A stretch of DNA of 63,962 bases, counting the filler, from Basidiobolus ranarum (taxonomy: Eukaryota), in NCBI GenBank assembly GCA_040143965.1. It is 3 parts of 3 records of this genome, joined end to end, with 100 filler letters (N's around TTAATTAATTAA, not from the genome) between each part and the next. Parts side by side here need not be neighbours in the genome. Positions count along the whole stretch, not along the records: positions 43,108 to 63,962 come from JASJQH010007095.1; 2 more parts are not named here. One strand, given 5' to 3'. How positions within the stretch are numbered: position 1 is the stretch's first letter; each line of letters starts with the position of its first letter. The translations under genes were made by a program, and so were the position numbers. Under the pieces are notes generated by a model. That model had not been told where the DNA came from, made no database searches, and worked only from the letters and a program-made list of their open reading frames with translations. Shown piece by piece: positions 24,943-63,962 of the stretch.

Positions 24943-26540
24943 AATGAACACAATATAAATATATGTTGGCTAAACTGAGTTGTACTATAAAAAATCCTCT
25001 AATCCCATCCAAAAATTCTATTTTGGCTAGATTGAAGCCAGGTAGTAGAGTGATCACTCTAGGTTAGGTTTTCTATGAGAGCCTAGAAGTAACAAATCAC
25101 TTTTGTTTTAAAAGCACAAGAAATCATATCACAAATGAGCAAATGAGCTCACCATTGGAGTACCCAAAGGGTTGTAGCTAAAGCCACCTGGTTTCTCATT
25201 TTCATGGTAAAGAATCCATATATCTGAGAACTTCCAAACACACTCCAATTGAGAATAGTAAGTGATATCTTGGTTCAATATAGGATAACTAAATACTAAG
25301 CTATATATGACTATATAGGTGCTTAGACAATGTTAACTGCAGCAGATAATTATAATTTGTTGATGATTTGGAAGTATTTTGGGTGTTTGCTGGAAGTTGT
25401 TCAGGAAACTAGAAAGAATTGATGGCTTTCACTTATTGATTAATTGCATTGAAAGTTGCTACTTATAGTTTTGCAAGTAGGTAAGCAAGTAAGTATGTAG
25501 TGTTAAAGTATTTGGGAGCCTGTTGGAAGTGGTTTGGAGAATTAGAGAAATTGGCGGTTTTCACTTATGGAATTATTAAGTAGAAAGTTGACATTTGTAG
25601 TTTTGTCAAGATGTAAGCAAAAAAACACATAGAATGTGTTAAGAGAGGTTTCAGGGCCATGTGTGCAAGTTTTGGTGCTTCTAGCACCAGTTATCAAAAT
25701 CTATATATCTGAGAACTTCTAAGTTGGTAAAAAATATTCCAAGTAAGTTCCAATTGCAAATAATGGATAATATCTTAGTTCAATATAAGATAACCAAGTA
25801 CTAAGCTATATATGACTATATAGGTGCTTAGGCAATACTAATTTCAATATCTTCATAGTACAACTCAGCTTAGCCAACATATATGTATATTATATTCATT
25901 AGTTGAGATTGTCTAATGAAAATGAAAATTTTCACCCAAAATGACCTCAGATGATGACAAAAATCAATTTTCTCCTGATCCAATCATTCAAATTGATTCA
26001 AACCAAAACAATGGAGAAAATAGCATTCCTGTGGACCCTTCAACCAAAAATGAGAATAATGGGTGAAATCTGAATATATATGTAACAATTAAATACCAAG
26101 CTATATATGACTATATAGATGTTTAGACTATGTTAATTTTAGCAAAATACAGGGTTATCAAATAACAGTTAGAGATACTAGCAGCTATTGAAATTAAAAT
26201 GGTATATATGTTAAAGAATTTGGGAACCTGTTGGAAATGGTTTGGAGAATCAGAGAAATTGGTAGTTTTCACTTATTGATTTATTGAGTATTCAAATGAC
26301 ATTTATAGTTTTGTGAAGATATAAGCAAACAAGCATGTAAAATGTGTTAAGGAAGGTCCCAGGAGCATGTGTGCAAATTTTGGGGCTTCTAGTACAAGTT
26401 TGAAGAATCCATATATCTGAGAACTTCTAAGTACACTCCTCTTGAGAATAGTAAGTGATATCTTAGTTCAATATAGGATAACTAAACACTAAGCTATATA
26501 TGACTATATAGGTGTTTAGGCAATGCTAATTTCAATAAAA
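24943..26540. repeat. Cluster of AT-rich repeat units with a ~50-bp inverted repeat pair (24943-24993 / 25850-25900); probable non-autonomous transposon remnant
   Basis: Recurrent blocks 'tttgggagcctgttggaagtggtttggagaattagagaaattgg' (~25370, 25501, 26210) and 'ctaagctatatatgactatataggtg' (~25296, 25801, 26096, 26489). aatgaacacaatataaatatatgttggctaaactgagttgtacta is mirrored at 25856-25900. Confidence 0.7.
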
Positions 26541-26720
26541 TATTCTAACAATATACCTGGTATGTTTATTCGTAAATCTAAGTTTTTTAAAAATATAATG
26601 CAACACCAGAATATTATTCAGTAGAATAGATTGCTGTTTAAGCTGTAGCGCTAATATCAACAAGAAACAAGTGCTTGAATGGATAAAATTATAGGATTTT
26701 AGGTAGGGTTTATTACGAAA

Positions 26721-39649: not shown

Positions 39650-41701
39650 ACTTGATTCGGTGCTTTACACAAGTGAGCCAGCACGGAGGAGATTTGTCTA
39701 TATTGGTGAATGGATATAGTGCTGTCCTTTATTTTTTTAAGCTCTTGCGTGCTAGACAAACACAAAAATTCTAGGAAAGTACCACGTAGAAAAAGAAAGC
39801 CCCGATTGTTCCAGGTAATTAACAAAATCAGGAGAATTGGAGTATACCAATCTTCTAAGAATGAGTGGAAGAGGAGTAAGGACAGCAACCTGACAGAGCG
39901 AATAAATGCTAGCTGATAAATAGCTCCCAATATGGCGGCGTAAAATTTCGAGGCAAAATGAGTTTACATTTTTAAAATTTAACATTTCCAACGAATTTCC
40001 ATTTAGAAAAGGTAGCTGTTAATATTACCATAAAGATACCATGATGATTGGTTGCTTGAACTTGAATGTCTTCCGTTTCTTAATAGTACAGCCAATCTTT
40101 ATCTGGAATTCAATTTTAGATAAAGTTTAGCAAATAAAGGGTAATAACAGACGAATGTAGATCTATATTTAAATAGATGGGACAGGCTCTGGCTCTACAA
40201 GGCAGCATTTCTTTCTCAGGTCTTTTCGTAAACTAATGGGGAATTTCGTTTTCTGTCTCCATGCTCATGTTAGAACATTCTATGAAACAGTTGCTACTTT
40301 TTGCAATATTTCGGCACTTCGGTTGTTGCACAGCTTTTGGCCACGAGCAGACCACATTGCTGAAGTCGAGAATCCACTTATTATTATATCTTGAAGAGTT
40401 GGCCTTCGTCCAACCATCAAAGCACTGGTTTCAGGTGGCTTTGTGCGGTATTCATGCTTGGTATCACACATAATATCTCAACTTCAAACATTTTATCAGA
40501 AATGTGTCATGCTAGAGACATGTACCACAGAGCTGTGGTGAGGGTGAAAGTGCAATTATGTTTTGAGGTTAGGACTATGAAATCATCCTTGAAGTTATCA
40601 TCGTGCAAAATAGTACAGCGTGTTTGTAACACCTCTATGTCCGTAAAATAGTAGCCCAATCTAAGTCAAGGAACGAAAGATATTCCAGATACTGGTAGCC
40701 CAGTTTAAGAATTATGAGTTCTTTTACGAGATTCGAATACTCATTGCCAGAAACAAGCTGCTTATCACCCTCATCATAACCGTGATTTTTGGATAGAAAT
40801 CTTCAATAGGGGCAGTGCGGTTTTATTGCGTTTAAAATAGTCTCTTGGCAGTGAAAAAGGAAAGTGAATGGTACCAATTTTTTAGGGGGTTTCCAATTAT
40901 TGTTCGATATATTGGGATATCGACAGATTTATTTTAATGAATACTCCTTAAATACGACGTTGGTCTATTGAGAGCCTTGTACGCACAATAATAAATGTGT
41001 CTATAAAATGGCGAGAAATGAGGCTGCTTAAAGCTCCTCATCTCTAGCTACTCATAGGCCTTCAGAATATATTGCATTTGTTCGTTATCTTATACAGTGT
41101 GAATGTTACAAATATTCTGATTGGAATTAAACCATATCGCTATATCGTGCTTTGGTATATGATTGAAATCAAAGTGAAATCGAATCTCTGTACCTCATCT
41201 AAAATACTCCCAACTTAATCAAGTCAACAATTGTTCAGCCATATATTTTAAATATCTCGTGATAATTTGAGATTGTTTAGAGTATTATAAAAAAATATAC
41301 AGCATGTTTGGTTGAATTGAACATACTACTTGTTGCGACATTAGTAGTAAGCCCCTAAATAGGGGAACATTTCGTTAGCATATTCAATGTGTATATACTC
41401 AATAATGAAGAACGATGACATTGTAACATCATCTTTGAATATATCTCAGGTATGTTGAAAAAGATTAAACGTTCTAAATTGTCCATACTCCACAAGTATT
41501 TCCAGCAAAAATATAATGTTCTTATAATGCAATCACTAATATCTAATACATTGTAAACTTGTCCACAAGTATCTCTTTTCTATTCAATGCCTAAGCAAGT
41601 AAAGAAAAACTACTCTTTTATTCATCCAAAGCACATTAACTTGTTCTCAAATATCCATAACAGTTGAACATGCATTGGCATATTCCTGTTTCTTTATTTA
41701 G

Positions 41702-42019
41702 TGTTGTAGGATCTTGACATAATGGGGGTAGACTTTGTATATTAGAGGCAACTTATGATAATATTTTTTGGTTACTTTATTCTTAAGAGAATATGGTGGA
41801 CTTATATAGTTGAGAAGTAAATCAATTATTTGAGATAGTCAGAAGTTTGTGTAATAGGATTTAATAGTTAAGTGAGGATAATAAGACATACTTCTTATAT
41901 AGATGTAGAGATATTCCTATTTTTAATATAGGGGCAGTAGATACGTTGTTTTCTGTTTCTGATATATATATCATAACTAAAGTTAACTAAGATGTTGAAT
42001 AAAGATTAATTATTCAACA
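41702..42019 (-). mobile_element. Copia-family LTR (~318 bp), minus orientation, preceded on the minus strand by a polypurine-tract-like aagggaagg
   Basis: TGTTG...CAACA ends. It is the reverse-complement homolog of the LTR at 42463-42780. Confidence 0.85.
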
Positions 42020-42080
42020 CCTTCCCTTAATTCTTATTCAGCAATATGCTTATATTCACTAATGCCTATGCCTGCTCTTT

Positions 42081-42462
42081 GTTAAAGTAATTGGGAGCCT
42101 GTTGAAAGTGGTTTGGAGAATTAGAGAAATTGGTGGTTTTCACTTGTTGATTTATTCAGTAGAAAGTTGACATTTATAGTCTTGTCAAGATATAAACAAA
42201 CTATCATGTAGAATGTGTTAGGGAAGGTCCCAGGAGCATGTGCACAAAGTTTGGGGCTTCCAGCACCAGTTTGAAAAAATCTATATATCAGAGAACTTCT
42301 AAGTTGGTCAAAAAAATTCCAAGTAAATTCCAATTGAGAATGATGGATATGTTAGAGTATTTGGGAGCCTGTTGGAAGTGGTTTGGAGAATTAGAGGAAT
42401 AGGTGGTTTTCACTTATTGATTTATTGAGTAGAAAGTTGACATTTATAGTTTTGTCAAGATG
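42081..42462. repeat. About 1.4 tandem copies of the ~270-bp repeat unit also seen at 25.4-26.5 kb, interrupted by the copia LTR
   Basis: 'ttgggagcctgttg(a/g)aagtggtttggagaattagag...agaaagttgacatttatagt' at 42091 and 42361. The second copy stops at the LTR start. Confidence 0.8.
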
Positions 42463-43007
42463 TGTTGGATAATTAATCTTTATTCAACATCATAGTTAAC
42501 TTTAGTTATGATACATATATCAGAAACAGAAATTAACATATCTATAGCCCCTATATTCTAAATAGGAATATCTCTATATCAATATAACAAGTATGTCTTA
42601 TTACCCCCACTTATCTACTATATCTTATTACACAAACTCCTGAATATCTCAAACAATTGATTTACTTTTCTAGTATATAAGTCACCATATACTCTTAAGA
42701 ATAAACTAACTAAAAACACACTATCATAAGTTGCTTCTAATACACAAAGTCTACCCCCATTATGTCAAGATCCTCCAACATGGTAGCAGTAAGTGAATTA
42801 GAGTTTTCTTCCCAAAAGGAGATTACTAATATTGCAACATTCAATGGGGAAGATTTCCATGAATGAAAATTCAAGATGCAACTTGTGCTTGAAGGGAAAC
42901 ATGTCTGGGAAGTAGTTTAACCAGATGAAGAAGAAGAAACTTCTGAGGAAGAAAGTACAGATTCTGATACTGAAACAAAGAAGCCAACATGTAAAGAAGC
43001 CAGGGTA
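42463..43007 (+). mobile_element. Degenerate Ty1/copia retrotransposon: 5' LTR (42463-42780), PBS and disrupted gag start, truncated by the contig end
   Basis: TGTTG...CAACA LTR is immediately followed by TGGTAGCAG, a tRNA-Met-type PBS. Then IATFNGEDFHE*KFKMQLVLEGKHVWEVV*, a copia gag N-terminal motif with two in-frame stops. Confidence 0.88.
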
Positions 43008-43107
43008 NNNNNNNNNNNNNNNNNNNNNNNNNNNNNNNNNNNNNNNNNNNNTTAATTAATTAANNNNNNNNNNNNNNNNNNNNNNNNNNNNNNNNNNNNN
43101 NNNNNNN
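43008..43107. other. Artificial contig-joining spacer (N44-TTAATTAATTAA-N44)
   Basis: Same 100-nt linker as at 21472. It supplies the false stop of the 2342-aa ORF. Confidence 0.97.
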
Positions 43108-46100
43108 TAATTCTCCATGATACCAGATCAATGGCATAGTGATGAACAGTCATGAAAATCAACTGTTGCCCATTCCAGAGATCATAAAGTGAAAATTGGA
43201 AGAGTGGGCCTGTTTCAATATTGAGGCTTCTCTGCAGCAGATGCACATGGTCCTTGAGTTCCTCGACAGTTTGAATATTACGATGATGAACCTCAAACGA
43301 TTCCTTTCCAGGTGGAAGTACTTGCAGTTTCCACTCACCATTTGTGTTAGTAAAGCGACTACGAAGCATATCGTGCTGATCGAGTATTCCGTCAATGGCT
43401 TTAGATAGATTACCGACACTGATGGGGGTTTGTAACCGTAATAACCAAGACTGATTGAAGTGATTATCATTGGTTTGTTGAGTCTCGAAAAAGTATTCCT
43501 GGATAGGCGTAAGAGGTACAGCTCCTTCCCGAGGTTCCTCTGTCGTTTTGGATATAGCAGTCAAAACAGTAGAGACAGAAGCCTGTTCGCGAATAGTTGG
43601 GTTTTGCATTACTTGTTGCACAGTCAAAGAGATACCATTCTGTCTACTCATAGATGACACCCGAATAGCCGAGATTGAATCACCACCTAAGTGGAAGAAA
43701 GAGTCATTGGCACCTATTTGTGAAGGTGAAATATTAAGAGTCCCAGACCATATCTCAAGCAACATCTTTTCAATGGGCGTAGTGCATTCAACTTTTTGAG
43801 TATTTGCAGATAAACTTTTAAGTTGGTCAATATTCAACGATTTGAAGAAAGCCGTAAGATGTTTGCGATCAACCTTTCCGTTTGCAGTAGTAGGCATTTT
43901 TTGAAGAGGGATCCAGACAGAGGGTACCATGTATGACGGCAAGATCTGTTTAGCGAGATTTCTAGTTTCATCAATGTAGGTAGCTGCAACCTCAGCATCA
44001 GCACCGGTCAGTCTCTCAACCTCAGCATCATTATCACGCATGTCACTATAAGTTATGAATGCTACCAACACTCGTCGATTAGAATTGCTATCTGCCACTA
44101 GTGGGAGAACACAGGCTCTGTCAGTCATGGGATGTTCGTACAGAGCATGTTCAATTTCGTCCAGTTCAATACGCAATCCATTGACCTTGATCTGATTATC
44201 CATTCTTCCAACCATTTCCACAGTACCATCCGTGTTAAATCGACCAAGATCACCAGAGCGGTACATGAGCTCTCCTGGAATGAAGGGATTCTTGACCCAT
44301 GAAGCCTCTGTAAGGTCAGGACGATTGAAATAACCTCGACCAATCTGGGAGCCAGATATGCAAACCTCTCCAATCACTCCTATGGGCACCCGAGATAACT
44401 CAGGATCTAATACATACATATTACAATTTCCGATGGACTTGCCGACATTTCCGATTGAGGATTTCTCACTGATTTTAGGATTCACCGAGCAAACTACAGC
44501 CGTCTCTGTTGGTCCGTAGCAGTTGTAGAAGTCCACAAAGGGAACCCACATATTACGTACCGTAGAGGTCAACATCTCTCCACCAGTTTGAATCCTTTTC
44601 ATGGTTGGGACTTTCTCCGGGTTGACGAAGCTAGCAACGGTTGGTGTTAGGATTGCTGATGTTACTCCCATCGTATTAATACAGCTCTCCAAGTCAGTAA
44701 GTAAGTGATCCTTGGAAGCCACTGCCATCCTGGCTCCGCTTAGGAATGGTAAGAATATCTCCATTACGGAAATGTCGAAGTTGTAATTTGAGAATTGAAG
44801 GATCGAATCTAATTCTGTAACGTTCCAAACTGCTTGTTGTGCTCTGATAAAACTAACTACAGCTAAGTGTTCTAACATGACACCCTTAGGGGTTCCAGTT
44901 GAGCCTGAAGTAAATAATATATAGCATAAATTGGATGAAGTAAGCCCGTCAATGACAGGATTGAGAACTGATTGTTGACTAATGGATTCCTTATCAGAGT
45001 CGATCAGGATCACATTATGCCCGTCGAAGAACTGCTTGTAGCACTCAAGGGTCACCACAACATTGGCTTGAGTTTCATTTACAATGAAACGATTACGCTC
45101 CACAGGGGTGCTCGGATCTAACGGAACATAAGCACCGCCGGCTTTAAGAACCGCCATTATTGCTACCAGTTGCTCCACAGATTTATCCATGCACAATGGA
45201 ACGAGGGAATCCGGTCTTACACCATGCTTGACCAGAAGGTGTGCCAGTTGATTTGAACGCTTGTTTAATTCCTCATACGTTACATACTCTGTGTCTTCAT
45301 ATTGAATAACCACGTTGTTGGGCGTAAGTAGGGCTTGCTTTTCTAGAAGATGGTGCAGGCAGTCATGGATCTCTGAGGTATTGGATTTGTTAATATTGAA
45401 GCTATCAATCAAACTTATCTCTGATTCCGCCATCTTTGGAAGCGCTTGGATTTGGGTTTCACCGTCTGCCTTAATGATGGCTTCAATAATTGCCTCCAGT
45501 CTCTCTAGAAGGTGTCCGGCCAGAGCTTCTGTAACTGAATCACTACTATAATCCAATCTTAAGGCAAGTACTCCGTTTTCGGTCCAGGAATTCAGAGTTA
45601 GTTTGTATTCTGTTGGCTCTAAAATCTTCTCCAATTCAAATTTCAGTTTCACTTCGTTGTCACTCTGAGTATCGTTATCGTCTTGAGACTGGAAATTAAG
45701 AATGGTGTCAAAGCTAATGGTGGTTCCATGCGATTTGCACCACTGGTTGATCTTCTGTAAACCACAATTTTGGAATGGAATACTGGTGAGTAAGTGTAAG
45801 TGAATCTTATGCAACCAATCCACTACACGCATCTCTTTGTTGATTTGGATTCTCAATGGAGAAGTGTTGATGCATGGCCCAATAACCTTATCGATATTCT
45901 TCATGGCCATGTTTCGTCCATTTGTAATAATTCCATACACAAAGTCTTCCTGTGCGTAATACGGCTGTAGCAGTAAGCCCCAGGCTGCCTGTACCACAGT
46001 AGCAAGCGTGACACCCATTGTCTTAGCAAAGTGACGTAGGTCTCTAGTTGCAACTTTAGGTTTTGCTGTCAACTGGAGGTTCTCAGTTTTGAGGAGGTTC

Positions 46101-49100
46101 AAGTCTCCTAGCCTTGGGAAGGTACAGGGCTCTGTACCGGATAAATAACTTGTCCAGTATTTTGACCCCTTGTCATTACTCAAAGCCTTCTCCTCCTTAA
46201 CGCGATAGGCAATGTAATCTTTGTACGGAATGACTGAAGGTCTCATAGTGTCGTTGTAAACTGCTGACAAATCATTCATTGTAATTCTATCAGACCAGCC
46301 ATCGTTGATTGAGTGATGGCGACTGATGATCATCCTGTCTTCACCGTCTCTTACATGGAACAGATGTAAGCGTACGTTGGGCTCTCCAAGAGGGAATCCT
46401 CTGATTACATCATCATCAAGATATTTCTTGACAACTGAGTCGACTTGATCATTATCAATCGTGGATTGCTCGAATTCTAGCTCGAGTTCCCTCAAAACAA
46501 TCTGAAGGTAAGCCCCTGATATTTTTGAATCAAACGGATTGTTAATAAATACTGTTCTCAAAATTGGTAGATCATGAACAATCGTTTTCCAGGCGGAAAT
46601 CAACTTGTCTGTGTCCAAATCCCCAACTAGCTTGTATACATCTCGTACATGATACAGCTCAGGTGATCTCATATTTCCAATAATCAAACCTTCTTGTATA
46701 GGCGAGCATGGGTAAATATCTTCCACATTATGGGCTAGATGCTGGCTATATTGAGGTAGGACTTGATGAACTAATCGATGCAATTCCTCTTCATGCAACG
46801 AAAGAAGTGGGAGATCCGAGACAGTCAGCTCTCCTCTCTCTTTATCAGCACACACGTGAACCGCTTCGATTAATGATTGGCGCCACGATTGCAACCATTG
46901 ACTAACATCTTCCTCCTTGTGAAGAGCATTACTGTATGAGATAGAACAGCAGAGATTGTTGTGCTGTATGGTTACTTCAGCTTCAATAGCATTCATTCTT
47001 CTCCATTTTGGACCAATCAACTTCAAATCAAACTTGTATTTCTCATCAACATCTTGCAACAGTGCCCCTGTCTTTTCTAGATGTTGGAAACGTCCAAGAT
47101 AATTGAAACCAACCTGTGTCTGGTCATTACGAAGAGTTGCAGAGTGTTCTTCATTCAAGTAGCGGAGAAGGCCATAGGTAAAGCCATGATGAGGAATACG
47201 CTTACGAACATCCTTAGTACGTTTTAGTACATCAATGAGAGTATCCCCTGGCTTACTTTGGACGGTAACAGGATAAATAGAGGTGAACCAACCGACAGTT
47301 CGTGAGACATCAATGGAATCATCCCATGGCTCTCGACCGTGACCCTCCGTAGCAATGGTGAGTGACTGAGAGTTAAAAGTCGAGCAGTAAGAAGCGGCAA
47401 GAGTAGAAAGCATGAAATCTACAGCCTCGGTCCTATACGCATCGTTACTTGGGCCAAAGAGTAGCTTGGTATGTTCACTCTCCAAAGTAAACGATAATGT
47501 CTTCACTGTTTCCATGGTGTTCAGCGGGAGCTTGGATACATCGATGGCAAGAGGTTCTATTGGGGATTGCTTTGGCCAATCCTTAAGACTCAATGACTCA
47601 GCATGCTTACTCAATAATTTACTCCAGGCTTTGAAGGATAGGGATTTATACGACAGAGACTGGCCATTAAGAAGCTTCTCAAGATCCTCCCATATAACAC
47701 GCCAAGAAACAAGATCTATAAGGTAATGATGGATAGTCATAAACATCAACTGTTCGCCTTCTGGGAGATCGTAAAGCACAAAGGAGGTAATCGGTCCATT
47801 TTCGATGGAGAGGCTGCGTTGAATCTGGTATACATTTGCTTTCAATTCCTCAACATTTGAAACACGATGCTGTTGAACATTCATATTACTCTCTTCTTCG
47901 GGCACGATTCTTTGTTCCCAGCGACCATCTGTGCGTACAAATCGGACTCGAAGCATTGGATGATGGGCAGCAAGATCGTTCATCGCTTTCTGCAACACCG
48001 TGGCATTGATAGGCTCTCTCACTTTTACCAACCATGAAAGATGGAAATGATTTACTTCCAACTGTTCCACACCAAAGAATTGATGCTGAATAGGAGTGAA
48101 TGGAACTATGCCATTTTCTTCTTCCTCGTCATTAATAGCATGAATATCTTGCTTTCCTGTCACGAATTCTGCATAGTTATTGAGTTGATGGATAGTTGGG
48201 TGCTGAAGAATACTCTGGACGGAGACTTTGACTCCCATTTGGCGACACTGTGAGGATATTTGAATTGCAGAAATAGAATCACCTCCCAAGTGATAAAATG
48301 AATCATCGGTGCCTATAAGAGAGCGCTCAATATTTAGCACGTCTGCCCATACTTCCTGTAGAACCTCTTCCAGTGGAGTGCTAGGCTTCTTCTTGGCTTC
48401 CTTGGGATCTTGAGTAAAGCCACGAAGATAATCAGGATCGCTATCCTTATAGATGGCTTCTAGTGTTTTGAAGTCGGTTTTTCCACTGGTATTAATGGGA
48501 ATCCGAGTCAAAGGGACCCATACAGTTGGTACCATGTATTGGGGTAACTTGGTCCTCATGAGGTCCTGAAGATGGGATATTTGAGCGGTGATTTCGGTGT
48601 GTACTTGATTGTCAATAACAGCTACTGGTCCATCCTCCGAAGTCATATTTTTGATAGTCAAAAAGGCAACTAGAGCACGATGCTTCTTCTTTGTATTCAC
48701 ATTGACATCTAACAATCTTACCGATGCTCTAGAGACTTCAGGATATTGATGCAACGCATGCTCCACTTCGTCCAATTCAATTCGTAATCCGTTCAATTTG
48801 ATTTGATTATCTTTACGACCAAGAATCGTAATTGATCCATCCGGATTAAATCTGGCCAAATCTCCAGATTTGTATAAACGTTCTCCTTCAGTAAATGGGG
48901 AACTGACAAATACTTTTTCGGTAAGATCAGGTTTGTTCAGATAGCCACGTGCAAGTTGAGGCCCACCAAAGCAAATTTCACCGACAGCACCCAAAGGAAC
49001 AGTCTCCAACCTATCATTGAGGATGAACACCTTATTGCGGCCAATGGGCCAGCCGATGTTGGTGCAAGCTGTGGATTCACTCAATGAAGTCCTGATGATG

Positions 49101-50776
49101 GTGTATACAGTAGTTTCCGTTGGACCATAACCGTTATGGAGGGTTGTCCCATTGGTCCAAGCATCGCGTACTGGCTTTGTCAACATCTCACCACCTTGTT
49201 GGAGAAGCTTAAGGGTAGGTACTTCGCTGGGTTTCAATAATCCAGCCACCGTGGTGGTCAATTGGGCTGCTGTCACCTTCATCAAACGAGCCATCTCTGA
49301 CAAATTGGTAAGCAAGTTATTTTTGGAAGCCAAACAGATGCATGATCCAATGGTAAGGTTAACAAAGAAATCAAGAATGGATGCATCGAACGTATAGTTA
49401 GAGAATTGCAAGAAGCGGTCGTTTTGGGTCAAGTTCAAGATCTTTTGATGAGCAGCGACATAGTTGACTACTCCACGATGCTCCAACATCACACCTTTAG
49501 GAGTTCCTGTAGAACCAGAGGTGAAAATAAGATAACAGAGATTGGAAGACTTGAGGCTGGGTATTTCAGGATTTGTAGCTGGTTGCTGGCCTATACTAGT
49601 CTCCTCCCGATCTATTACGACTAGCTGAAGTTCGGAACATTGACTGAATACCTCCTCTAAATTGGAAGTGGTAATGCTTATTCTAGCTTTAGTGTCTTTG
49701 GCGATGAAAGACACACGTTCCATGGGATATTCTGGGTCTAAAGGAACATAAGCAGCACCTGCTTTCAGTACGGCCAGAATAGTAACAATCATATTGATCG
49801 ATTTCTCAAGACAAATTGGCACTATGTCATCAGGTTTCACACCAATTTCGATGAGATGATGGGCGAATCTATTAGCACGCTTGTTTAACTCGTCATAGGT
49901 AACTACCTCCTTATCCTCAAATTGGAGTGCGGCATTCCCGGGTGTTCTCTCTACCTGTCTTTCTATGAGATGATGCAAGCAGGTATCATCTAGTTCTCTA
50001 CTGTAGTCAGATTTTCCTTCTTGCCATATATTCAAAAGTATGTTTTTTTCGTTTTTGGGAGTCCAATTCAATGCCTTCATGGGTGAGTCAAGATTTTGGA
50101 CCAGTGTATTTGCAATATGAACAAATTGGTCAGCAAATAATTGTCCTTGGTCTAGTTGAAAATAATTGTCCGAAAATGTTAGTTGAATGCTGAGCTTTCC
50201 ACCTTCAAGCCAGCCTAACGCACTGACTGCGAGCTATATAGAGAGAAACAAGAAGTCAATACTTGTCTCGAAATCTAATGTGAATTGGCATATTACCTCG
50301 GAATTTTTTTGTAAGTCTAATTTTCTTTCTTTATCGCTGAATGCAACGTAGGTATTATATGGGCTAGTGCCGTCTTCAGCAGAGGAGCCAGAGACTTCAA
50401 AGATACTTGCTGGAGCGATCTTAGCTAACTTCTCAATCCAGTCTGCGACTAGGGAATTCTCCGTTTCTTCGTCATAAACCGAGTAAAATACGTCGAATGT
50501 CTTTAGAGAGACTTGGGATTCCTGATCCCCATAGTTCTTGGTACCAAAGGTGATATCAGAGTTTCTTGTATAGAGATTAAGCAAAATTGTCCACACAGCA
50601 TGTATCAATGCTTTCTCGAGGCCGGGTAGCTCCTTGAGGTTTACACGACTGTAAACTTGGTCCAAGGATACAAGGTCTGTCTGGGTAATCTGGAAATCTC
50701 CACCATTACCAGAGTTAGAACCTTCACTACTGCTGAGTTGCGGAAATTGGCAAACGCTAATCTTCGATGTGTTCAT
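43108..50776 (-). CDS. Multimodular non-ribosomal peptide synthetase: partial C-A1-T1-E1-C-A2-T2-E2, 3' truncated by contig end; intron 50234-50296
   Basis: A cores (YLIFTSGSTGTPKGVML, NGYGPTET, LYKSGDLARF, GRKDNQIKLNGLRIELDE) occur twice. T motif LGGDSISAI occurs twice. E motifs HHYLIDLVSW, EGHGRE, RTVGWFTS and FNYLG; C motif HHSINDGWS. Exon 1 (50776-50297) splices in frame via LAVSALGW...DSPM into ORF 50080. Confidence 0.96.
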
Positions 50777-52220
50777 TGTAGATGGTACTTTTCTCTTGAA
50801 TGGGTTTTTGAATTAATCGTATGCAATATGTCGCTATATATAGATGTTTTCGTTAGTACCATTCAATCGAATGAAGCATCAAGAGTAGCCTACCAACTCG
50901 CCTGTCAATGAATTGAAACTTGCTTGTCAATCATTACCTTTTCAATCCCATCAGAACAAGTAAATTCAATGGCAATATTGGCAATTGTCAGCACAAGTAG
51001 ATGTATCACAGTAGTAATTCAGTCGAGGATTCCCACATTGTAGAATTTCTGACGCCTATCTCTAGTGGATCCGGTGGCAGTCACATCGGCTCTTCATAAT
51101 TGTGTACCGTATAGCGAGTGCTCCAGCCATCTTTTCCTGAACTAGTCATTGCATCTTAGCCATTCCATAATAACAAGAAACTAAATCTGCCTACTCTCAA
51201 ATGGGTTAAAGGTTTCACGCTATCAAGTCCCCAAACCCCGCCACGTGCTACCAAAGAAGGTGAGTGAATGGTAAAAACTCGATTAATATCAGTTAGGTAT
51301 TGCGCAATTCCATGATTTATTAAGTAGCTACATTGCTACAAATAATCAACACGTATGATTTCTCATTGGCAGACCTTTTAGGCAAGTTTGTACGTTTCGA
51401 CTTGAAAATCATTCTTATATTAGGCATTCTGGTGACACCAATCAATCCTAGATACTCTAGTGACTGAGCTCTCCAGTATACGTCTGTGACAACTACGGTT
51501 AAGAAACCTTTTTGCCAGTCAAGAACCAGAACGAAATAAGTGAATATCTCGGGTGCAGTAGAGCGCTTCGCCGATATTCCTACTGCTTTCACCTAATAAG
51601 AAGCATTAGCGCGCTTTGATGGCCCTTTACATACAAAGTGGTGTCTAAGATTCCGATCAATCATCAATATCTATGGTGTGATGAATCTTCAAGCAATCCT
51701 GACTTGGACAAACGGTTAAGTGGATCCAGACATTTTATCGAAACAAGTTCAGATCAGGCACAATACAGCATTGCCAACCCTGCAATTAACACTGGGATTC
51801 AATTTCCAGATGCCCTAGATGAATGGAATGACGTTATTATCTGACAAATCGAAAGCGCTATGCGATCTTCTGCATGACTCCAAGGCGATCAGTGCCTTAC
51901 ATGCAATTGGAGATGAGCGCAGGATTTTAAGGTTGGAAGATCCATCGATAGAGTCTGCATAAATCCAACTATTTCATTGCTATTTGTTATTAAGTCGATC
52001 GCATTGGTGATGATAGTCATGGTTATTCCCTTTTCAGGGCAGGATGGACGTAAATGACTATCTGGACATGTCGATCGTTGCTAATTAGCAATCTTACTCG
52101 GTTACATTTCAGTGCGGAACTTGAATTCAGGCCTTGTTGCTATCGGATATCTACCTCGGCAAAAGCCTTGGCATGATCTCGAGCAAGTAAAGGAACACGG
52201 CTGGAATAGATGGAATAGCT
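50696..52220 (-). repeat. Left arm of a large inverted segmental duplication (NRPS 5' end plus ~1.45 kb upstream)
   Basis: The reverse complement is colinear with 62350-63962, e.g. aaacaagttcagatc at 51741-51755 / 62851-62865 and gttattatctgacaaat at 51833-51849 / 62742-62758. Confidence 0.9.
50834..50843 (-). promoter_or_regulatory. TATA-like element (ctatatatag) of the NRPS promoter
   Basis: About 60 nt upstream of ATG 50776 and exactly conserved at 63815-63824 in the paralogous promoter. Confidence 0.55.
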
Positions 52221-55200
52221 ATTTTGAAAGGAATTAGAACATCTTTGGGATCAGATGGTCCATACAATCCAGTCCATTCTGACAAAAACGTAATTAAAGT
52301 TCAGTATTCTTTGGATATCAGGAACTGCATCCCCCAAATTCCTGGCTACCTTAGAACTTTAAACCAGTTTACACTGTCACTAAGGCGTTTCTGTGGTGGT
52401 TACTTTGTGATTAAAGTATGTAACCCTTGGAGGCTTATAATCATAGTCTCTTTGTAGTAATGATAGTCCTATTGGTGTGTACGTACAGTTGAGCCAAGAA
52501 CGATGCCCAAAGATATTACAGTGGTTTCAAAATTCATGTATTCCCCTGATATGGCTTAATTGTAAGAGTCGCTTGCAAAGTTCTCTTTTGTTGTAGCCAT
52601 TTGAGAACCATTGGAAGTGCTTCATCGTTCTCGTTGGATATTTGGTTGCGGTGAAGTTGTACCTTCACATCAGTATGAAATGTTGAAATGAATCGACTCT
52701 TCTGAATCTTCATCTACGAATCAGAGGATTGAGATGGTCGCGTGCTTCCTATTGCTATCATCTGAATCATTAAAAGTAATAATATATGATGTAAGAACTA
52801 TGATAGGCTTGTTGCAGCCAAAATATCTATAATTCGAATATGTATTCCCGGGAATAGCGCAAAATGGAATGACCATTAAAAAATGTTATTTTACCTGAAA
52901 TTACATTGAATCTTGCGGCATTAATAGTTGGTTAAAAATGAAGATTTGCCGACATAAAACAGGTGGTAAATCAACATTTAACTCAATGTAAAAAGTGTAG
53001 TGCTGCTTAGAACAATCCACCATTGTATTATGAAGGAATAAGATTTAGATGTTTGCTCTCTTGCGGAGTAATGCTAATTGTATGTCGTTAATTTAGTATG
53101 AGTTGAAAAATAGTTAAAGCAAAAATTTAGCGTCCGTATCATGCTTGATATCTCCATAGTTATACAAGCTCATATATCGAGTAGATGTTAGTCGATATTA
53201 TTTAGTCATAGATGCTATAATCCCGTGTGTAATATTAATGTGTATATTAATGAACAGTCAAGGAATTAGCAAAATCGAACCTGATATGCCTTGGAAATTT
53301 GCCAAAGACAACTCATACTACTCTGATATATATTCTGAGCAGCATCATGTGGTTGTTTTTTTGAAACTCATTGTATCTATGGTGTCTATTAATTCTACCT
53401 TTACACACCTAACTCTTTCGTAGCCAACATCCCAGCGAGCAATTTTGGTTTAGTTCAAAGGCAGAATATGTAATTCGGAATCTTTAGCTTGAGGTCTCAA
53501 AGATGTTCAATTTCACCTGAAGAGTCTTCAATTTTCTTTCACTCATTTTCTTAACACTAGATCTTTTCTTTCATTACTATATGCCAGAGTGCAAATATTG
53601 ATTCTCTGCCTGAAAACACTTTCAGCACTGCATGTCCTTGAATACCTTTGCATAAACTCAACTAGTGTATATTGCCCTAACAAAACTATATATCATTAAA
53701 TGCATTTCACCAGCAACTAGTTATCGAAATATGTGCAAAATTCTGGCCTTAATTCGCCAATAAAAATTTGGGTTGGCAAGTATTCTTGAGACTGAAAGAA
53801 AATGATAAAAAACTGTAGTTCAACATGACTGGAATTTTACAGCAAAAATTAAGCCCAATAGGAATCTTTTAATCACATAACTGACAGGTAGTCAATAAAG
53901 CATATGATGCAAGATTCTTTTCAGACCAAAATGGCTCACTCTGTGAAGCCTTAATGTCAACCTGAAAAAGCTTTTTAAGCCCTAGTCTTTGGCATAGGAG
54001 TGGATACTAGTATTTTTATGGGGGATGAAGAAAAACCAACTCAGTGTATTGCCAAGAATGCCAAGCCCTACTACTAGTTACGTTGCTTACTTATTTTAGA
54101 ATGCCTTTATAAGCAAGCTTTATACATAGTTTCATAAGATGTTTCCTACCCTGATCCCATTATTAGTTTGAGAAGTTTAAGACAAAATTGTAAATACCCA
54201 GGTTTCAACTAATAAACCAAAAAGCAAAAAACAGACTTTCTTCTCATAGTCCATGTCACTTCAAATATCCCTGAGAATTCTCAACAATCTTAATATGTTG
54301 AAGAACACTCCTATAAGTCCTTCATCAAATAAAAAAAATGTTCAACAATAACTATATACTACTCCTGTGTAACAGAAGAAAGTATTGCAGGGTAAATTTC
54401 TTATATCTACAATGGTTCCATCAGTAGGCTGCTTAAGGTTAAGTGAAAGGAATCTGATATATTATATATTAAGCTTCCCCATTACAAATTTTCTTTGATA
54501 TTGCTATTCTTGTGCCCTAAGACTTTAAATAAACCAGAAGCAAGTAATGCCACTTATTGAAATACTTGTATACCAGTATTAGTTTACTGTACCTCACACT
54601 CAGTCCCAGAACATGATCTGATCACAGAATATTCTGGTTTTGGTGGTGGTCTTTATCAGTAATCAGCTCCCCCAGTTAGAACTCATACTATTGCTGAATA
54701 TTTTACACCAAATATCTTATATTAAGTGCGTCAAATGCTTTTTACAATGCAATTAGCTTCATATGAGATCAATGGATGGTGGGAATCAGTCTTGTAAGCT
54801 CATTGAAGTATGTCTCAACCAAAATATAATTAGATATTAGACCTCACCAAATGATTGCATCATGAATATCAAGGTTTCCTATTTTGTAATGCTGGAAATT
54901 TCTGGGATATTGAAAGTAAAATAGATTGTTGTATAATAGTTTGGTTTTTGCTTGATGATTTATTAGTTCAAGCTTTTGTATTTATACTTCTGGCCAAAAT
55001 ATCAGAAATTAATGCTGGGAACCTGGTGGAAAAGATGTCACAACAATGCACTAGAGTCAAGGCTTAATCATTAACCAGCTATAATCTCATTCAAGAGTCT
55101 TAGCTGGGCTAGCAGTTATCCATTAGAGACCATATCCAGATGCACCATATTTCAACCATCCCCTACCAACATTGACACCAGTCTAAGGTTATAAATGTAA

Positions 55201-55515
55201 GTGCAAGGCCCAGATGTATTGTATATACCACTATTTCAGTGATAAACTTAAGATATACTTGCCTAATATATGATGGAAACATTGAGAACTTTTTGCCATG
55301 ATTCTGATCTTGGCATACTCATTCACTGCAAATGGAACTCTTCTATTATTAGATTATGATATCATATCTGCTGTGCCATCCTTTCTTGGCAATCTTGGGA
55401 TAGTTCATCCAGGTTACCTTGAATGGAAGTCATGTTCTTTGGAACATTCCATCAAACCTGACTAATCGTGTCATCCCACATATAGTATATTTCCACCAAG
55501 TCCTTCTATGGAAGG

Positions 55516-55832
55516 TGTTGGAGGATCTTGATATAATGGGGGTAGACTTTGGGTATTAGAAGCAACTTATGATAGTGTGTTTTAGTTACTTTATTCTTAA
55601 GAGTATATGGTGACTTATATAGTAGAAAAGTAAATTAATTGTGTGAGATATTCAGTAGTTTGTGTAATAAGATATAATAGATAAGTGAGGGTAATAAGAC
55701 ATACTTGTTATATAGATATAGAGATGTTTCTATTTAGAGTATAGGGGCTATAGATACATTACTTTCAGTTTCTGATATATGTATCATAACTAAAGTTAAC
55801 TAAGATGTTGAATAAGGATTAATTATCCAACA
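55516..55832 (-). mobile_element. Solo LTR of the same copia family (~317 bp)
   Basis: tgttggaggatcttgatataatgggggtagac...aattatccaaca is highly similar to 41702-42019 and to the reverse complement of 42463-42780. Confidence 0.88.
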
Positions 55833-58800
55833 ATTATATTTGTGCATTTGTTGAAGTTAGGAATGGGAATATTATTTAATAGTTTGGCTTGCATTAGAGC
55901 TGGTATAAATGTGTTGATAATAACATTCATTATAAATGCTGAATAAAGTATACTATAAATATACATGCTGAAGGCCAAATTGATTTTGCCTGACAGAGGT
56001 GAAATCCTAAATAAGAATTATGTAAATGGGATTGAATCATGGTTAAAAGGTTTCTTACAAACAATGCTAAAGGAATCCAGTTGGAAAACCATATGGTAAT
56101 CTGTGTAAAAGCAGTTAAAAACCAAGTTATTTGTATTATGAGGGATTTCTGATGATACTCAGACAATTTGATGAGGATCTAATCTAGTTCATCCAAAATT
56201 GATTTTCATGTGGAACTTTTGCATCAGAGATTGATAAGACTCAAACAGAAAGGTCCAGGTTGCAGAGGAATATGAATAATATCCTTGATTAAGTGGACAT
56301 ATGATCAGTAAATAGTATCTTGAATTGTATATTCAGTGGTATTAGTGGCATTGAAGTTATTTGGGAGTTGTTGCAAGTAAGTTACCATATATACTTTTGT
56401 CAAGAGGTAGGCAGACCAATGTTTGGAATATATTCAGGAAGGCATCAGGAACATGTTTACAAAGTCTAGGGCCTGTTTGGCAAGCTTGAGAAAATTATAT
56501 GATTTGAGAGTTTCATATTATATTATAGGTAACTTATGAATATAAAATCACAATGCTATCAGATTAGAACTTATAATCCAGGATGTTTGGATATATAGTC
56601 AATAACTTGAAATTTCAGTGCAGAAAATATGTTGAGAGAAAAACTGATCCACAAACTGTAAGCAACGTAAACGTACATACTATCACCAAGAGTAGTGGAA
56701 TCACCCTAATATCAAAGAAGGCCATTTAGGCTCTACTTTGGCTATGTGGAAAATATAGAGTTAATGCATGGATTGAACGTCGAGATAGTGTCGTTTAAAA
56801 GATGCAAGCAACAAAGGTAAATCAAGGGCGCTAGCGTACATTTCAGATTATGAGCAACACTTATCTAATCAATACTAGCTAGCCGAGATAGGATATATGG
56901 AATAGGAGAATGAGACTAAGATAATACATCCAAATAATATAGGTGTTTGTTAAGTGTAACGGATATAGAGTAGTAATGGATCTAGATGCATTGGTTCCAT
57001 CATCGATGATATCGTAATTGGAATTTTAAAGATGATGGAAGAGATTCGATGTTGCCTAGTGTTTAAGTAGCAACTACCTATCCAATATCAAAGCTTGTAT
57101 ACTTGGCAGTCTTTGGATTTGAATCAACCTAAACCTGAATTGTATCATGATAAGAGCGAGCTAGACTTTCGTGCAGTCAGACTACACTGTATTTGCTTAC
57201 TGTAACAATTAGCTAACTTAATAAATAGGCTTTAAAAGAAGTGTTTGAGAGTCTGGTAAATACCTAAGCCTGGCATTTTCTGACATCAAAGAGAATTTGA
57301 ATATTGCTGCCCATTCCAAGCGAATATTCGACATCATTGAAAACCTAGACGGCATCAAAACTAGTCAAGACAACAATCCTAGCCTTTCCTTCATTGGTAA
57401 TGATGCAATAACTAGGTTCAATACCTTTGAATCAGAGTGAAAATGGTTGGTGGTACATTAGATGAGACTAATAAACTTGCCAGTAAAACACCAGACTTTC
57501 CTGAATTTTGCTATCAAATCGATGAGTCAGTACGTTGTCTTAAATTCCAAGTGAAATGAACTCACTTAGAACTCACCGCAATGGAAGAATAAAAAACCAT
57601 GCCGATATATAACACAGCCTTTTGGGCTGATCCTTCTTCTAGAACTATAGATTTATCTTACCGACTTCACTTATCTGTAGCATTATTGTATCAACTAGAG
57701 CCTATTCCCCTTAGAGACCTGCTGAGATCACGAGTACGGCCAGGCACGAAACTAGCTTTCCCCTCGGACTTGCAAGAGTCTTCAAATATCCACTGGATGC
57801 TACAGAGGTGTAGTGCTCTATCCACTACTGAACCCGTCAATATAGCAACTTTTTAACAACAAGTCAATAGAATTGAAACGTATCCCTGCTTTTTGATGGA
57901 TTTTTATACGGGTTAATGACCAGGAATCAGGTGATTATGGGGGCCTCGTCAAGCCTTGAGTTAGATACAGTGACAGGCATCAGATGAAACGTTGAGGCAC
58001 TACAGCTTAATCAATAGATTCCCCACAGTTCTTCCAGTAACAGCATTACGTAGGAAATATCTTAGTTGCTGCACCACATACGGTGTATCTGCAGTTGGCC
58101 AAGACGCTGCTGTTTATTCAGAATTGCAACGCAGAGAAGGTAGAAATACGAGCAGCATGTTACTCTTTCGTAGGCGACTAAAGAATTCGCGAGGATAATA
58201 AACGGCTTTATGAGTAGAAAATGGGTAGGGATTATTTCCCCCAGGAGTTAAGTGTACCATGCAATGTAACATTGGGTGATTTGAATTTGTGTAGATCCCT
58301 TCCATATAGAAGAACCCTCAATAGAAGCTGGTTGATTTGCAAGCGTGGTATGCCACAAATAACTGTATTACGATTGACAGGACTCAAGTGGGTTCATACC
58401 AGTTTAGTTAATATCCAAAACGAGTATACCGAAAGAACTCGATGCAAACGAGTTTCGAGTGCTCAGGACATATCGACATTGTGAGTCAAGATCCCACGGC
58501 ATACCCTGTATCGTATACAATGTAGCAACTTATTAACCTTTCATACTCACTATAGGTTACTAACATAATGCACAGTTGCGTAAATATTTAGGACTTTCTT
58601 CATTCCACTACTAACTGTGTTATGATGTGCACCATGCTGGCTCAATAAGCCTTGAAAATTATGCGGGAATCCCTTTACGGCATAGATAAATTCAGGATAT
58701 ACTATCCCGGAATATTAACTCACAGATGCTTTATTTAGTATTCAATAATAGATTACTTTATTTACCGACTGCATATTTGGAAATGCTGCGGAATTTTACC

Positions 58801-61800
58801 CACAGGAAAAACCATGCAGAATTTTGGAGCAATTTTTGCATATCATAAGATAATATCTCACATCTGATATCACACGTTATTGCCCAAAGAAGAGAGTTCA
58901 TCCGGAGGTGTCGTAAATCTCCAAGTAAGTTTAGGGTTCGTGACGTTTCTTTACATACCGATGGTCGTGGGATAATTTCAATATTGATTGGCGCATACGC
59001 ACTCACTATTCCTCGATGATTTATTGCGGATGTGTTTGTTGGCGTTTACCAACGTGATATTAGTGCAGAAAATGTGTGACTACTAATATGCACCTCTACT
59101 GGTTTCTCGATACGCATGCATATCGAAAAGTCTATTTATAAATTTGTTGATCTGACTATGTACTGTCACAAATTTCTTGGCAAGTGTGTCTGAACAGACA
59201 AAAGGTACAGCGTTATTACAAAGATCCTGACTACAACTGACTCAATATGTATGAGTATACCTGATTTGAATGCATGATTCTTTCAGAGGCGACCAAGGCC
59301 AAAGGAGTGACCATACCCAACCCACTGCCAAGGACGGAAATCCGGCTATCAAATGGCAAGTGAAGTATTTACCAACAGATTTGTACTGATACTATGGAAA
59401 CCATGTAACCCGTCAGTGCTACCAGTACGGTATTCGTTACAATGCACAGAGCGTACTGTTAAAACACCTGGGGGATTGATGCAGTATTACAGCCAAGAAA
59501 GGACTAATTTCAGTCATGGCTTCGTGAGAATGCTAGTATTATCTACGCCAAACTGTACTTAAAGTTAGTCGTTGCCTTAAATTCTAGCCTAAGGAATTCT
59601 TTCCTCACACTGGTATCACAGGATATGACAGAATCTCAGATTCTAAATAGTAACAATTATCCGAATCATTCTAGGCTTCAGGTGTTTCCTGTGTCAGTGT
59701 TCTTTTGTATAGAACACTTATGAGGATTCTGGAGTCAAGTAAGGATCAGTGACTTTTGAATTCGGTTAATTTAGAAACAAATAACGAAAACAATTATGTA
59801 TTTGCGTATGCTACTACGGTGAGAGATTGTCATATTTGGATGTGCTTCATTCGGGATACACATATTTGTTCATCAATATTGATAATTACAGGAATCGCAT
59901 GAATGCCATTATATGGTGGAATGCTTTTGGTTGATTCAAGTAAGGTGAACTTACTTTTCTGGTGCTGCAAGAGGCTGAAGATGAAAGTAGAGATCAAACT
60001 GTGCATCAAGTAGCGGTATGTCAGAGTGAACAAGGTGAATTATGCGGTGACTACAGATCTTGTAATCAAGATCAATTGTCTGGTTAATAAGTCTTCAATT
60101 CAGAGATATAAGTATTTTAGATCTCGGCTGGTAAGATCATAGTGTTACAATAACTAGCAGATATAATGGGCTTCACTCCGGAACTTAAAATTCCCATCAT
60201 AAACATCTACCTTTACTATGGCCATTGTTTTGGGATATTTATTCTATGTAACCCAATAGCGGGTTAGTTAGATATATGGTTCTGTCGCTCACTGCACTAT
60301 TCACAAATAGAATTACTAGTGTCACTTACCCTTGTGGACCCCTCACCTTTAGAAACCTGTAAGAGGTAGAGGCGCTAGACCTTGGATTCAGCAACTATTA
60401 ATGCACAGTAGATGCAACTTAATCTTGGCCGGGTTGAGTTTTGTCATGTGTGTTTGGACTAAATATTTTTCCTCCAAGATTATAGCTTTGAGAAGATCTT
60501 TCAGCTTGAACTGATAGTTTAATACATTAGATCTTGTCGGGTCAGGTTTCTACCAGATTCTAATGGCCTTAGTACTTCAATTCATCTAAATTACTCTTCT
60601 AAACTTGAGTAACTATCTGTTTTGGATATAAATCCAGTCTATTGGAGATTTAACATGTAGAGCACTTGCTGATTTTCCGACCCCCCTTTTGTCTGGGTAC
60701 TAATTAGATACCGATCCAACACCAAAATATTCGTCAGTGCATACAACTATTACCTAGTTTTTAGGACACATTGGGCCGAGCTGGTCAAGGACTGGTTAGA
60801 GTGTTATGTTCGTAACCACTGATGGTTAAATCCAGGTAACTTCTTCCTTGGGTGAGCAATTCATTTTTTTATTTCGCCGGTCGAATAAGTGAAGGTATTC
60901 TGGCGAGGTTGCGGTCAGTAGATATCCAGTAGACGATTCATTAATGTCTTTTTACCGGTTCAGAATACTTTACAAAAACCCCTGTTTAACTAAGCCTCGA
61001 TTCATCTATGCAGCAACACATAACAGCACTGCCAAACTCTAGCTGAAAATAAAGTAATACTGGAAAGATGTGACATCTTTCGCTTTATTGAACCTAGATT
61101 CTACGTAAAAGTACATTATCAATCAATCATGAAGTTACAATAAAACTTGTTTCTAATTTCAAATATTTAACAGAGTTTGGTGTAATAGTATTTCTGCGGT
61201 AACTAGGTACATACACGAACTAATACAAGTAAGAATGGAGCTATGAATGAATCACCTAATAAAATCATTATTCTTGGCGTTGCTTGTTGCTAGGAAATTC
61301 TACTAACAAAGCTATGTGATTTGGTAGCCAAATGCTATATGTTCGTTTTTCTGAAGCATCATAATTTCACATTTCTTGTTCAGGATCTTTGGAGCAACAG
61401 AGGTGACATAGGCTAACATAGTTGCTTCTAACCAACTAATTATATGTTGACAAGAAACGCTGTATCTTATGAAATACCTGGTGAATGCACTTAAATAAAG
61501 ATGGAAATAGCTCATCCATATTCTTATTGACGGAACACTAGAAGTGTATACACGTGGTACTGCTATTAGTTGAACGCCTATGACTTGTTGCTACTGAAAC
61601 ATGCAAGTCAGCAATCAACTTCTGACTCACAATTGTTGCTTCATATTCCATCAAGACCAAGTTAAGGTGCATCAATACAACAACGATTGTATCATCTAGG
61701 AAGTAAATTGGCTGAGACTAGATTTGTTTAACGTTCCAAATATCCTACTCAAACAACTAGTGTTCCCTCCGTGTCTGCTTTCCATACTGATAGTAAGGCT

Positions 61801-62349
61801 TACAGCGTTCCAAACGATGGGCGTACGACTGATTTACTGCTGTATTTACTTCTCTTTCTGCAGTTTCTTCTGGTTGCTTACCGATCTCATCATCAACTGT
61901 ACATTTTGATCATCTTTTGAGTCAACACTGACATCATACATAGCAAGGCTACTATGAAGTAGCACTTGTTATTCTGGAATAGAATGGTTCGAAATGATTG
62001 AGTTGTACTAAACTAAAGAATCTACACATATATGTAAACAGGTATTTTCAGGAATATTTAAGCCGAAATTGCTCAGTTTAGAAATGAACATCCCGCAATG
62101 CGGATGAAGTCACAACAAGTAGTGAACTAGTTACAATACCTCCGCGGCATAATCCCCCTCCACGTCGCAACACAACCATTTACAAGGACCATGGTATACA
62201 CTCATTCCAAAACATTACACTTGATTGAACAGAGATAGTTCGAAGGGATAAACAGGAGATCTTGTGGTCACCAAAAGAGTTCTTTAATAGAATCAGTCTG
62301 TGTTAATTCATTCGATCTGGAAGATTTTCTCATAAAATCTAACACTGTA

Positions 62350-63962
62350 CCTATACCACGTAGTTCAGCTATGCACCTTTACTCGCTCGAGATTCTGCCA
62401 AGAATTTAGGCATGGTAGGCACTTCATCGGATACTAACAAGGTTCGAATTCCAGTTCACCATACAAATGTGACCAAATGAAAAGTAACTAATTAGTAAAG
62501 ATCGACAGGCTCTTATGGCCAATTACATCAGGCTTTCCTATCAGAAGCAACCATAATGTTACCTCGGGTGCTGTACTAGTGTATTTATGATTGAGTTGAG
62601 ATTCATTCCATTCCAACCTTAACATACTAATCTAAGAGATCGGCTAAATAACAAATAGCTTTTGAACCTTAAAACCCTATGATTATCTCGAGGCACATAT
62701 TTAGGATTGATCGTCATGCACCAGATCGTATAATAATTTCTATTTGTCAGATAATAACAAAGTTAACCTAAATCATTGTAAACTCTAGAGATTCCATCAC
62801 AATCCCAAAGGCTAGCTGAGTTACATGGTCAACGAAGATGTAATGCGCCGGATCTGAACTTGTTTGAACAGAAGGTCTGGATCCCCTAACCGTTTGCCGA
62901 GGTCTTCGTGGCTTGAAGACCCGTCATACGCAGTAACTCTTGCCATAGCTATTTGCTATTGGGGTTTCACTTCAAGTCATCAATTCTAGGAGCTCATTAG
63001 ATACCCGGTATGTAGAAAGTTATCGAAGTCTGGTTCAGAATTGGTGGTTATTATTCTTGGGGGATGAGCAGTAAAAAATCCGGTTAAATACTATCCTGCA
63101 CATCCGAGATGTTCGTGTGAAAAAACTCACCTTGTGTTGCTCAGGATGATGAAAGTCAGTAATTGGCACCATAGGATATTTGATACTAGAAGATTTATAA
63201 TTAATTGGTGACGCTGTAATACCTAATATAAGAAGGATTTGCAAATGAAAAGCACAAACCTGCCGTAAAAGTCTGCCGATGAGAAATCATAGATGTTTAT
63301 TATTTAAGATACTGTATCTTCATGATCATGGAATTGTACAACATCTTTTGGTTGTAATCGACCTTTTAACATACATACAGCTTCTTTGGTAACACGTGGT
63401 GGGTTTTGGGGTTTGATACCGTGAATCCGTCAACCCTTTTGAAGGTAGTAGGATTTGTTTTCTTGTTTGTCACTAAATGACTAAACTATAATGTTTGGTT
63501 CAGTAAGAGATGGCTGGAGCACTTGCTTCCCGGCATATATTGACTAGAAAAATCTATATGCGGATGAAGTTACTGACAGATCTACAAGAGATAAGCGTCA
63601 GTAACTTTGTGATGTGGGAATCCTGGACATAGTCGTCAATGTGATACATCTACTTGTGCTGGCAATTACCAATATTGCTGTTGAATTTGCTTGTCAATCA
63701 CTACCTTTTTAGAACTGTGGTAACAAGCAAGTATCGTTCCATTGACGGGTACAATCTGAGGCTGTTGGTATGCTCTTGATACTTCATTCGATTGTATGAT
63801 ACTAACGAAAATTTCTATATATAGTGACACATTGCAAACTCATAATTCAAAAAACCATTCAAGAGAAAAGTACCATCTACAATGAACACATCGAAGATTA
63901 GCGTTTGCCAATTTCCGCAACTCAGCAGTAGTGAAGGTTCTAACTCTGGTAATGGTGGAGAT
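62350..63962 (+). repeat. Right arm of the inverted segmental duplication (promoter plus 5' end of a second NRPS)
   Basis: Colinear blocks match the reverse complement of 50696-52220. The final 108 nt are identical. Confidence 0.9.
63882..63962 (+). CDS. 5' end of a second NRPS paralog (MNTSKISVCQFPQLSSSEGSNSGNGGD...), running off the window
   Basis: 81/81 nt identical to the reverse complement of 50696-50776, the start of the minus-strand NRPS. Not in the ORF track. Confidence 0.85.
   Translation, partial: MNTSKISVCQFPQLSSSEGSNSGNGGD

Follow-up and report, generated by a model that had tools for sequence, protein, structure and literature searches.

An inverted duplication at a nonribosomal peptide synthetase locus of Basidiobolus ranarum carries a second, identical gene start at a contig end

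Results

The DNA analysed here, referred to as the window, is a stretch of 63,962 nucleotides (nt) from Basidiobolus ranarum (assembly GCA_040143965.1). Of interest in it is a nonribosomal peptide synthetase (NRPS) gene on the minus strand (copy 1), which stands head to head with a second copy of its start on the plus strand (copy 2). Runs of N occur only at 21472-21571 and 43008-43107, bordered by TTAATTAATTAA, and the window thus consists of three artificially joined contigs: contig 1 (1-21471), contig 2 (21572-43007) and contig 3 (43108-63962; 20,855 nt). Adjacency across the two N linkers is meaningless. As an earlier sequence-only reading had stated, the two arms of the inverted homology described below both lie in a single contig, contig 3, which is gap-free and has NRPS sequence at both of its termini (43108 and 63962). 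The features of the locus are listed in Table 1.

Table 1. Features of the inverted NRPS locus on contig 3 (positions along the window; A, adenylation; T, carrier; E, epimerization; C, condensation domain)
Feature	Position	Strand	Description
NRPS copy 1 exon 2	43108..50233	-	predicted A-T-E-C-A-T-E(partial); 2375 codons, 0 stops; truncated by contig start
NRPS copy 1 intron	50234..50296	-	63 nt, in frame, GT..AG, stop codon inside; three-frame reading
NRPS copy 1 exon 1	50297..50776	-	160 codons; ATG at 50776; Basidiobolus-specific N-terminal region
Exact tract, left copy	50696..50803	-	27 nt leader + 81 nt coding
Left arm	50804..52257		diverged upstream (promoter) region of copy 1; BLASTN 65% to right arm
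Unique spacer	52258..62308		~10 kb, GC 28-43%, no detectable gene
Dispersed ~318-nt repeat, solo copy	55515..55832		94% to 42463-42780, 88% to 41701-42019
Right arm	62309..63854		diverged upstream region of copy 2
Exact tract, right copy	63855..63962	+	terminates at contig end
Copy 2 start	63882..63962	+	ATG and initial 27 codons, same as in copy 1

The intron-free translation of copy 1 is 100% identical to the public B. ranarum protein K7432_005516 (P0003) over 2459 aa. The gene has a single intron, and because this intron is in frame and carries a stop codon, a plain list of open reading frames (ORFs) splits the NRPS into ORFs of 180 and 2342 aa. Pfam searches of the long frame returned AMP-binding (PF00501) twice (E 3.9e-153), PP-binding (PF00550) twice and Condensation (PF00668) three times, and TIGR01733 matched two stretches above the family cutoff. 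Among the matches listed for P0003, NCBIfam gave generic NRPS and adenylation families only, with no specific equivalog over its cutoff. Adenylation domains thus occur together with carrier and condensation domains in modular order, as in an NRPS. For the domain that follows the first carrier, the best PDB matches are BacC, PvdL, TycA (residues 612-1075) and GrsA (E 1e-49 to 1e-55), in regions that we take to be epimerization domains; for the next one along, they are the condensation domains of SrfA-C and of the N-terminal part of TycB. These matches point to a visible architecture of (N-terminal region)-A-T-E-C-A-T-E(partial), and copy 1 is, by its domains, a true NRPS of more than one module, with predicted epimerization domains. 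An earlier remark that the locus could make D-amino-acid peptides is reasonable in view of these predicted domains, whose identity we presume from the PDB matches.

Two further observations concern the same gene. The public model K7432_005516 departs from the open NRPS frame past 43337 and closes with an 11-residue terminal exon, and the NRPS frame stays open from 43337 to the contig start at 43108; the annotated C-terminus is probably a contig-edge artefact. Separately, the modules at 43108-45362 and 47695-49982 share 57% DNA identity across ~2.3 kb, a pattern that would indicate an internal module duplication within the NRPS.

Sensitive self-BLASTN gave a single alignment of 1696 columns, of 50696-52257 against 63962-62309, in which 65.3% of the columns are identical (E 2.5e-173). 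When inverted repeats were searched for in 43000-63962, eight pairs were returned, seven of which are collinear pieces of the two arms, the eighth being the N linker. The inverted homology spans ~1.56 kb, which is far beyond chance, and its two parts run in opposite directions along a single molecule, uninterrupted by N, as in an inverted segmental duplication. The alignment limits at 52257 and 62309 are close to those of the ~1.45 kb of inverted homology recognised before (to ~52220 and ~62350).

The arms have diverged unevenly. Their identity per 100 columns ranges from 29 to 74%, with ~72% at 63735-63834, and the 82 nt from 63773 to 63854 contain ~11 mismatches (~87% identity). A TATA-like block ~65 nt ahead of the ATG is conserved between them. 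When the arms were compared by tblastx, scores were similar in all frames, with no frame preference; a gene hidden in the arms is ruled out by this frame-neutral result and by the long ORFs, which lack a counterpart in the opposite arm. Transitions and transversions number 281 and 257, and repeat-induced point mutation (RIP) as the source of the divergence is likewise ruled out, there being no strong excess of C:G to T:A changes. From this pattern of substitution, the arms are best read as old, drifting non-coding DNA without RIP.

At the gene-proximal end of the arms the picture changes abruptly. Positions 63855-63962 are the reverse complement of 50696-50803, with 108 of 108 positions matching, and the last mismatch lies at 63854. 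The change at 63855 is a step, not a gradient: identity rises there from ~72-87% to 108/108, the step to much higher identity that is expected of gene conversion. As had been claimed, the window closes with the same 81 nt with which the coding sequence of the minus-strand NRPS opens: ATGs lie at 63882 (+) and 50776 (-), and identical sequence follows each. Copy 2 retains its ATG and 27 open in-frame codons, and its absence from the ORF track, which had also been pointed out, is due to the fact that only these 27 codons fall inside the window. A metagenome scan with 40 nt taken from the coding start that both copies share gave no matches.

The arms are only ~65% identical, yet the final 108 nt match exactly. 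This takes two events that differ in age: an old duplication, and either recent homogenisation or an effect of the assembly. The inverted duplication proposed in the sequence-only reading is real as far as the 5' region is concerned, and a single event does not suffice to account for it.

The assembly effect deserves consideration here. A real, diverged paralog could have had its final ~108 nt taken from copy 1 by way of a shared k-mer, in which case its true start would differ from the one seen. Such a copy jump would fit the location of the exact tract at the very contig end and its abrupt onset after the mismatch at 63854, and the family is highly fragmented in this assembly. However, a jump requires an exact shared word of k-mer length, so much of the identity would be real regardless, and the 82 nt preceding the tract are already ~87% identical. 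We regard this explanation as quite unlikely. The duplication itself is not a fold-back or chimeric artefact, because ~1.45 kb of diverged yet homologous flank precedes the exact part.

The separation of ~13 kb between the two genes, as reported from the sequence, holds; what had been overlooked is that no gene can be detected there. The GC content of the NRPS is 41-46%, and that of the spacer drops locally to 28-37%. No stop-to-stop ORF in the spacer exceeds 95 aa. Of the 85 stop-to-stop ORFs of at least 45 aa, we tested against Pfam all those of at least 60 aa save two that overlap exon 1; none of these 23 gave a match at E<0.01, the best reaching E 0.06 and scoring 13.9 bits where the cutoff is 27. 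Neither an Rfam match nor a tandem repeat (TRF) was found in the spacer, and tblastn with six paralogs placed none of its 19 matches outside the gene, i.e. the spacer holds no NRPS relics. Tailoring or transport genes were not found in the spacer either, although spliced genes with short exons could escape an ORF and Pfam screen. The genes are therefore parted by gene-poor, repeat-containing DNA rather than by a shared cluster core.

The repeat in the spacer has copies elsewhere in the window, which raises the possibility that contig 3 was wrongly joined within the spacer, for example at 55515-55832, and that the arms are not neighbours. Yet this repeat is short and matches its other copies at no more than 88-94% identity, and neither Ns nor an abrupt change of composition are found at it; a misjoin is thus, in our judgement, very improbable. 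The copies on contig 2 form the inverted ends, ~320 nt long and 89-91% complementary, of a foldback-like element of ~1.08 kb (41702-42780) that also has direct repeats of 112 nt inside it, and repeat units related to this element are also present at 25200-26550.

Exon 1 of copy 1 matches no Pfam family. An exhaustive HMMER search with exon 1 through 1.84 billion representatives found just 11 proteins at E<=0.001; six of them have E<=1e-10, and all six are from Basidiobolus (B. ranarum, five; B. meristosporus, one). When the N-termini of five paralogs were combined in a profile, weak matches came up directly ahead of the A domains of other NRPSs; they suggest, weakly, that the exon 1 region is what remains of a condensation domain's C-terminal half. 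No part of the family is less conserved than the N-terminal region, which has 37-59% identity between paralogs and shares no exact run of at least 18 aa with P0121. Since the region is so poorly conserved, the exact nucleotide identity between the two copies in the N-terminus and the untranslated leader is not explained by protein constraint.

The 120 best matches in a protein search with copy 1 include 10 B. ranarum proteins, encoded on contigs of 6-21 kb; outside Basidiobolus, the top-scoring among the same 120 are NRPSs of cyanobacteria (33-36% identity). B. meristosporus CBS 931.73, whose assembly is better, has a relative, ORX94727.1, on a scaffold of 134 kb. Several of the B. ranarum paralogs are truncated by contig ends. 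For another paralog there is a gene model of exon 1 alone, P0121 (K7432_012466; 166 aa; contig of 7,639 nt), and P0061 is a further 5'-truncated NRPS body. Given such short contigs, truncated paralogs and an exon-1-only model, the assembly evidently often breaks inside this NRPS family.

P0001 (K7432_009916) is collinear with copy 1 across both modules, with 57-83% identity per 100 aa, and begins directly past the exon 1/intron position, lacking exon 1. Its contig of 11,023 nt leaves at most 178 nt besides 3615 codons, and for this reason the exon 1 of P0001 must sit on another contig. K7432_009916 is a candidate continuation of copy 2; in that case the assembly would have broken on either side of the shared exon 1 tract. 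A further candidate body is K7432_013616. P0002 reaches up to 90% identity to copy 1 in module 1 and 42-60% in module 2. The relationships of P0001 and P0002 to P0003 are mosaic, an observation that suggests module exchange or replacement within the NRPS family.

These data also bear on the possibility that the right arm is a fragment only, that is, a dead or partial duplicate without an NRPS body, or a promoter and leader fused to an unrelated gene. Just 27 codons of copy 2 are visible, no second annotated protein of 1358-4323 aa bears the copy 1 N-terminus, and the adjoining 10 kb are gene-poor with a repeat fragment, suggesting a decaying region. Against this, an unselected relic would not be expected to keep 108 exact nt and an ATG beside flanks of ~65% identity, although conversion could bring this about; moreover, family members without a 5' end are present on other contigs, and the lack of NRPS relics in the spacer means that no decay of the duplication is visible elsewhere. 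A fragment of this kind appears unlikely to us.

Outside contig 3, contig 1 encodes a Zn2Cys6 fungal transcription factor (PF00172 and PF04082; 612-3152, minus strand) and an aldehyde dehydrogenase fragment (10602-11723, plus strand). Both lie on a separate contig, so a link with the NRPS cannot be inferred.

Discussion

Our results are most readily explained by an old inverted duplication that gave rise to head-to-head NRPS paralogs, followed by a recent gene-conversion tract and by an exact repeat that halted extension of the contig. We consider this combination probable, though with considerable reserve; most likely, the locus is an ordinary duplicated gene pair fragmented by draft assembly. 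An old inverted segmental duplication would have brought two genes from a bacterial-like, lineage-specific family of NRPSs into head-to-head order, and each paralog would have received its own ~1.5-kb upstream region, these regions having since drifted to ~65% identity. Later gene conversion between the inverted copies may then have homogenised the edge of the core promoter, the 5' leader and the beginning of exon 1. The resulting exact repeat would have blocked extension of the assembly, with the contig ending 108 nt into the tract, and the remainder of the second gene should sit on another contig. The link between the exact tract and the contig break is only plausible.

Several points weigh against this explanation. 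Among annotated proteins of 1358-4323 aa there is no second N-terminus like that of copy 1: those that match are P0003 itself, P0002 at 50% and P0001, the last only past the exon 1 position. The exact tract is bounded by diverged sequence on one side only, and 108 nt is its minimum length. We know of no assembler with 108 nt as its default k-mer size. P0001 could equally belong to the orphan exon 1 P0121, which makes the pairing of P0001 with copy 2 ambiguous. Finally, exact runs between other paralog pairs show no gene conversion at the protein level; the longest, of 50 aa with P0002, lies in a stretch of ~90% identity where ~52 aa would be expected.

Inverted segmental duplications can stay partly identical through intrachromosomal gene conversion. 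The NRPS locus resembles such conversion-maintained duplications in having inverted arms on one molecule and a sub-tract that is far more identical than the rest. It differs from them in that the arms are only ~65% identical, exact identity is confined to a tract of 108 nt or more, and the far border of the tract lies beyond the contig; we infer gene conversion from the inverted NRPS locus alone. The locus also recalls the repeat-induced contig ends of draft assemblies, in which, as here, an inverted copy of a gene start may stop at the contig edge, but in B. ranarum ~1.45 kb of diverged homologous flank comes before the exact part.

A variant of the conversion hypothesis holds that conversion is recurrent and keeps only the core promoter edge, the leader and the first codons identical, while the rest of the genes and the distal promoters diverge. 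This we find doubtful, if worth retaining. If true, concerted evolution would be confined to an expression and start module, perhaps keeping both synthetases co-regulated. In a bolder variant still, the duplicated promoter and leader would now drive a different gene body.

As regards the enzyme, the tyrocidine and gramicidin S synthetases begin, like copy 1, with an A-T-E initiation module followed by a condensation domain, where the identities of the copy 1 domains are those presumed from PDB matches. Unlike these synthetases, copy 1 has a Basidiobolus-specific region of ~210 aa before its first A domain.

According to the available text of Tabima et al. (2020, PMC7466969), the genus Basidiobolus is enriched in NRPS genes, partly through transfer from bacteria including cyanobacteria, and the transferred genes have few introns; the study treats B. 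meristosporus and B. heterosporus rather than B. ranarum. Copy 1 is similar to the bacterial-like NRPSs described there (PMC7466969), being likewise multi-module, with one short intron and, among the matches listed, with cyanobacterial NRPSs scoring best outside the genus. According to the available text of a 2025 preprint (10.1101/2025.03.31.646025), an isolate can have as many as 76 NRPS clusters, and the public B. ranarum genome comprises 65 Mb with 18,635 predicted genes. The text of PMC7466969, as far as available, contains no passage on head-to-head or inverted NRPS pairs, and that of 10.1101/2025.03.31.646025 makes no mention of duplication; cluster layouts may be listed in the supplements of both.

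With the head-to-head pair, a known type of event gains a new instance, in a genus known for NRPS expansion. Explaining it requires no new mechanism and raises no new question. For the study of this species it means that the public B. ranarum gene set, in which the NRPS family is split over many contig ends, gives unreliable counts of NRPS genes and clusters. For the genus, the locus would provide one concrete case of how NRPS genes have expanded in Basidiobolus, by local inverted duplication after acquisition.

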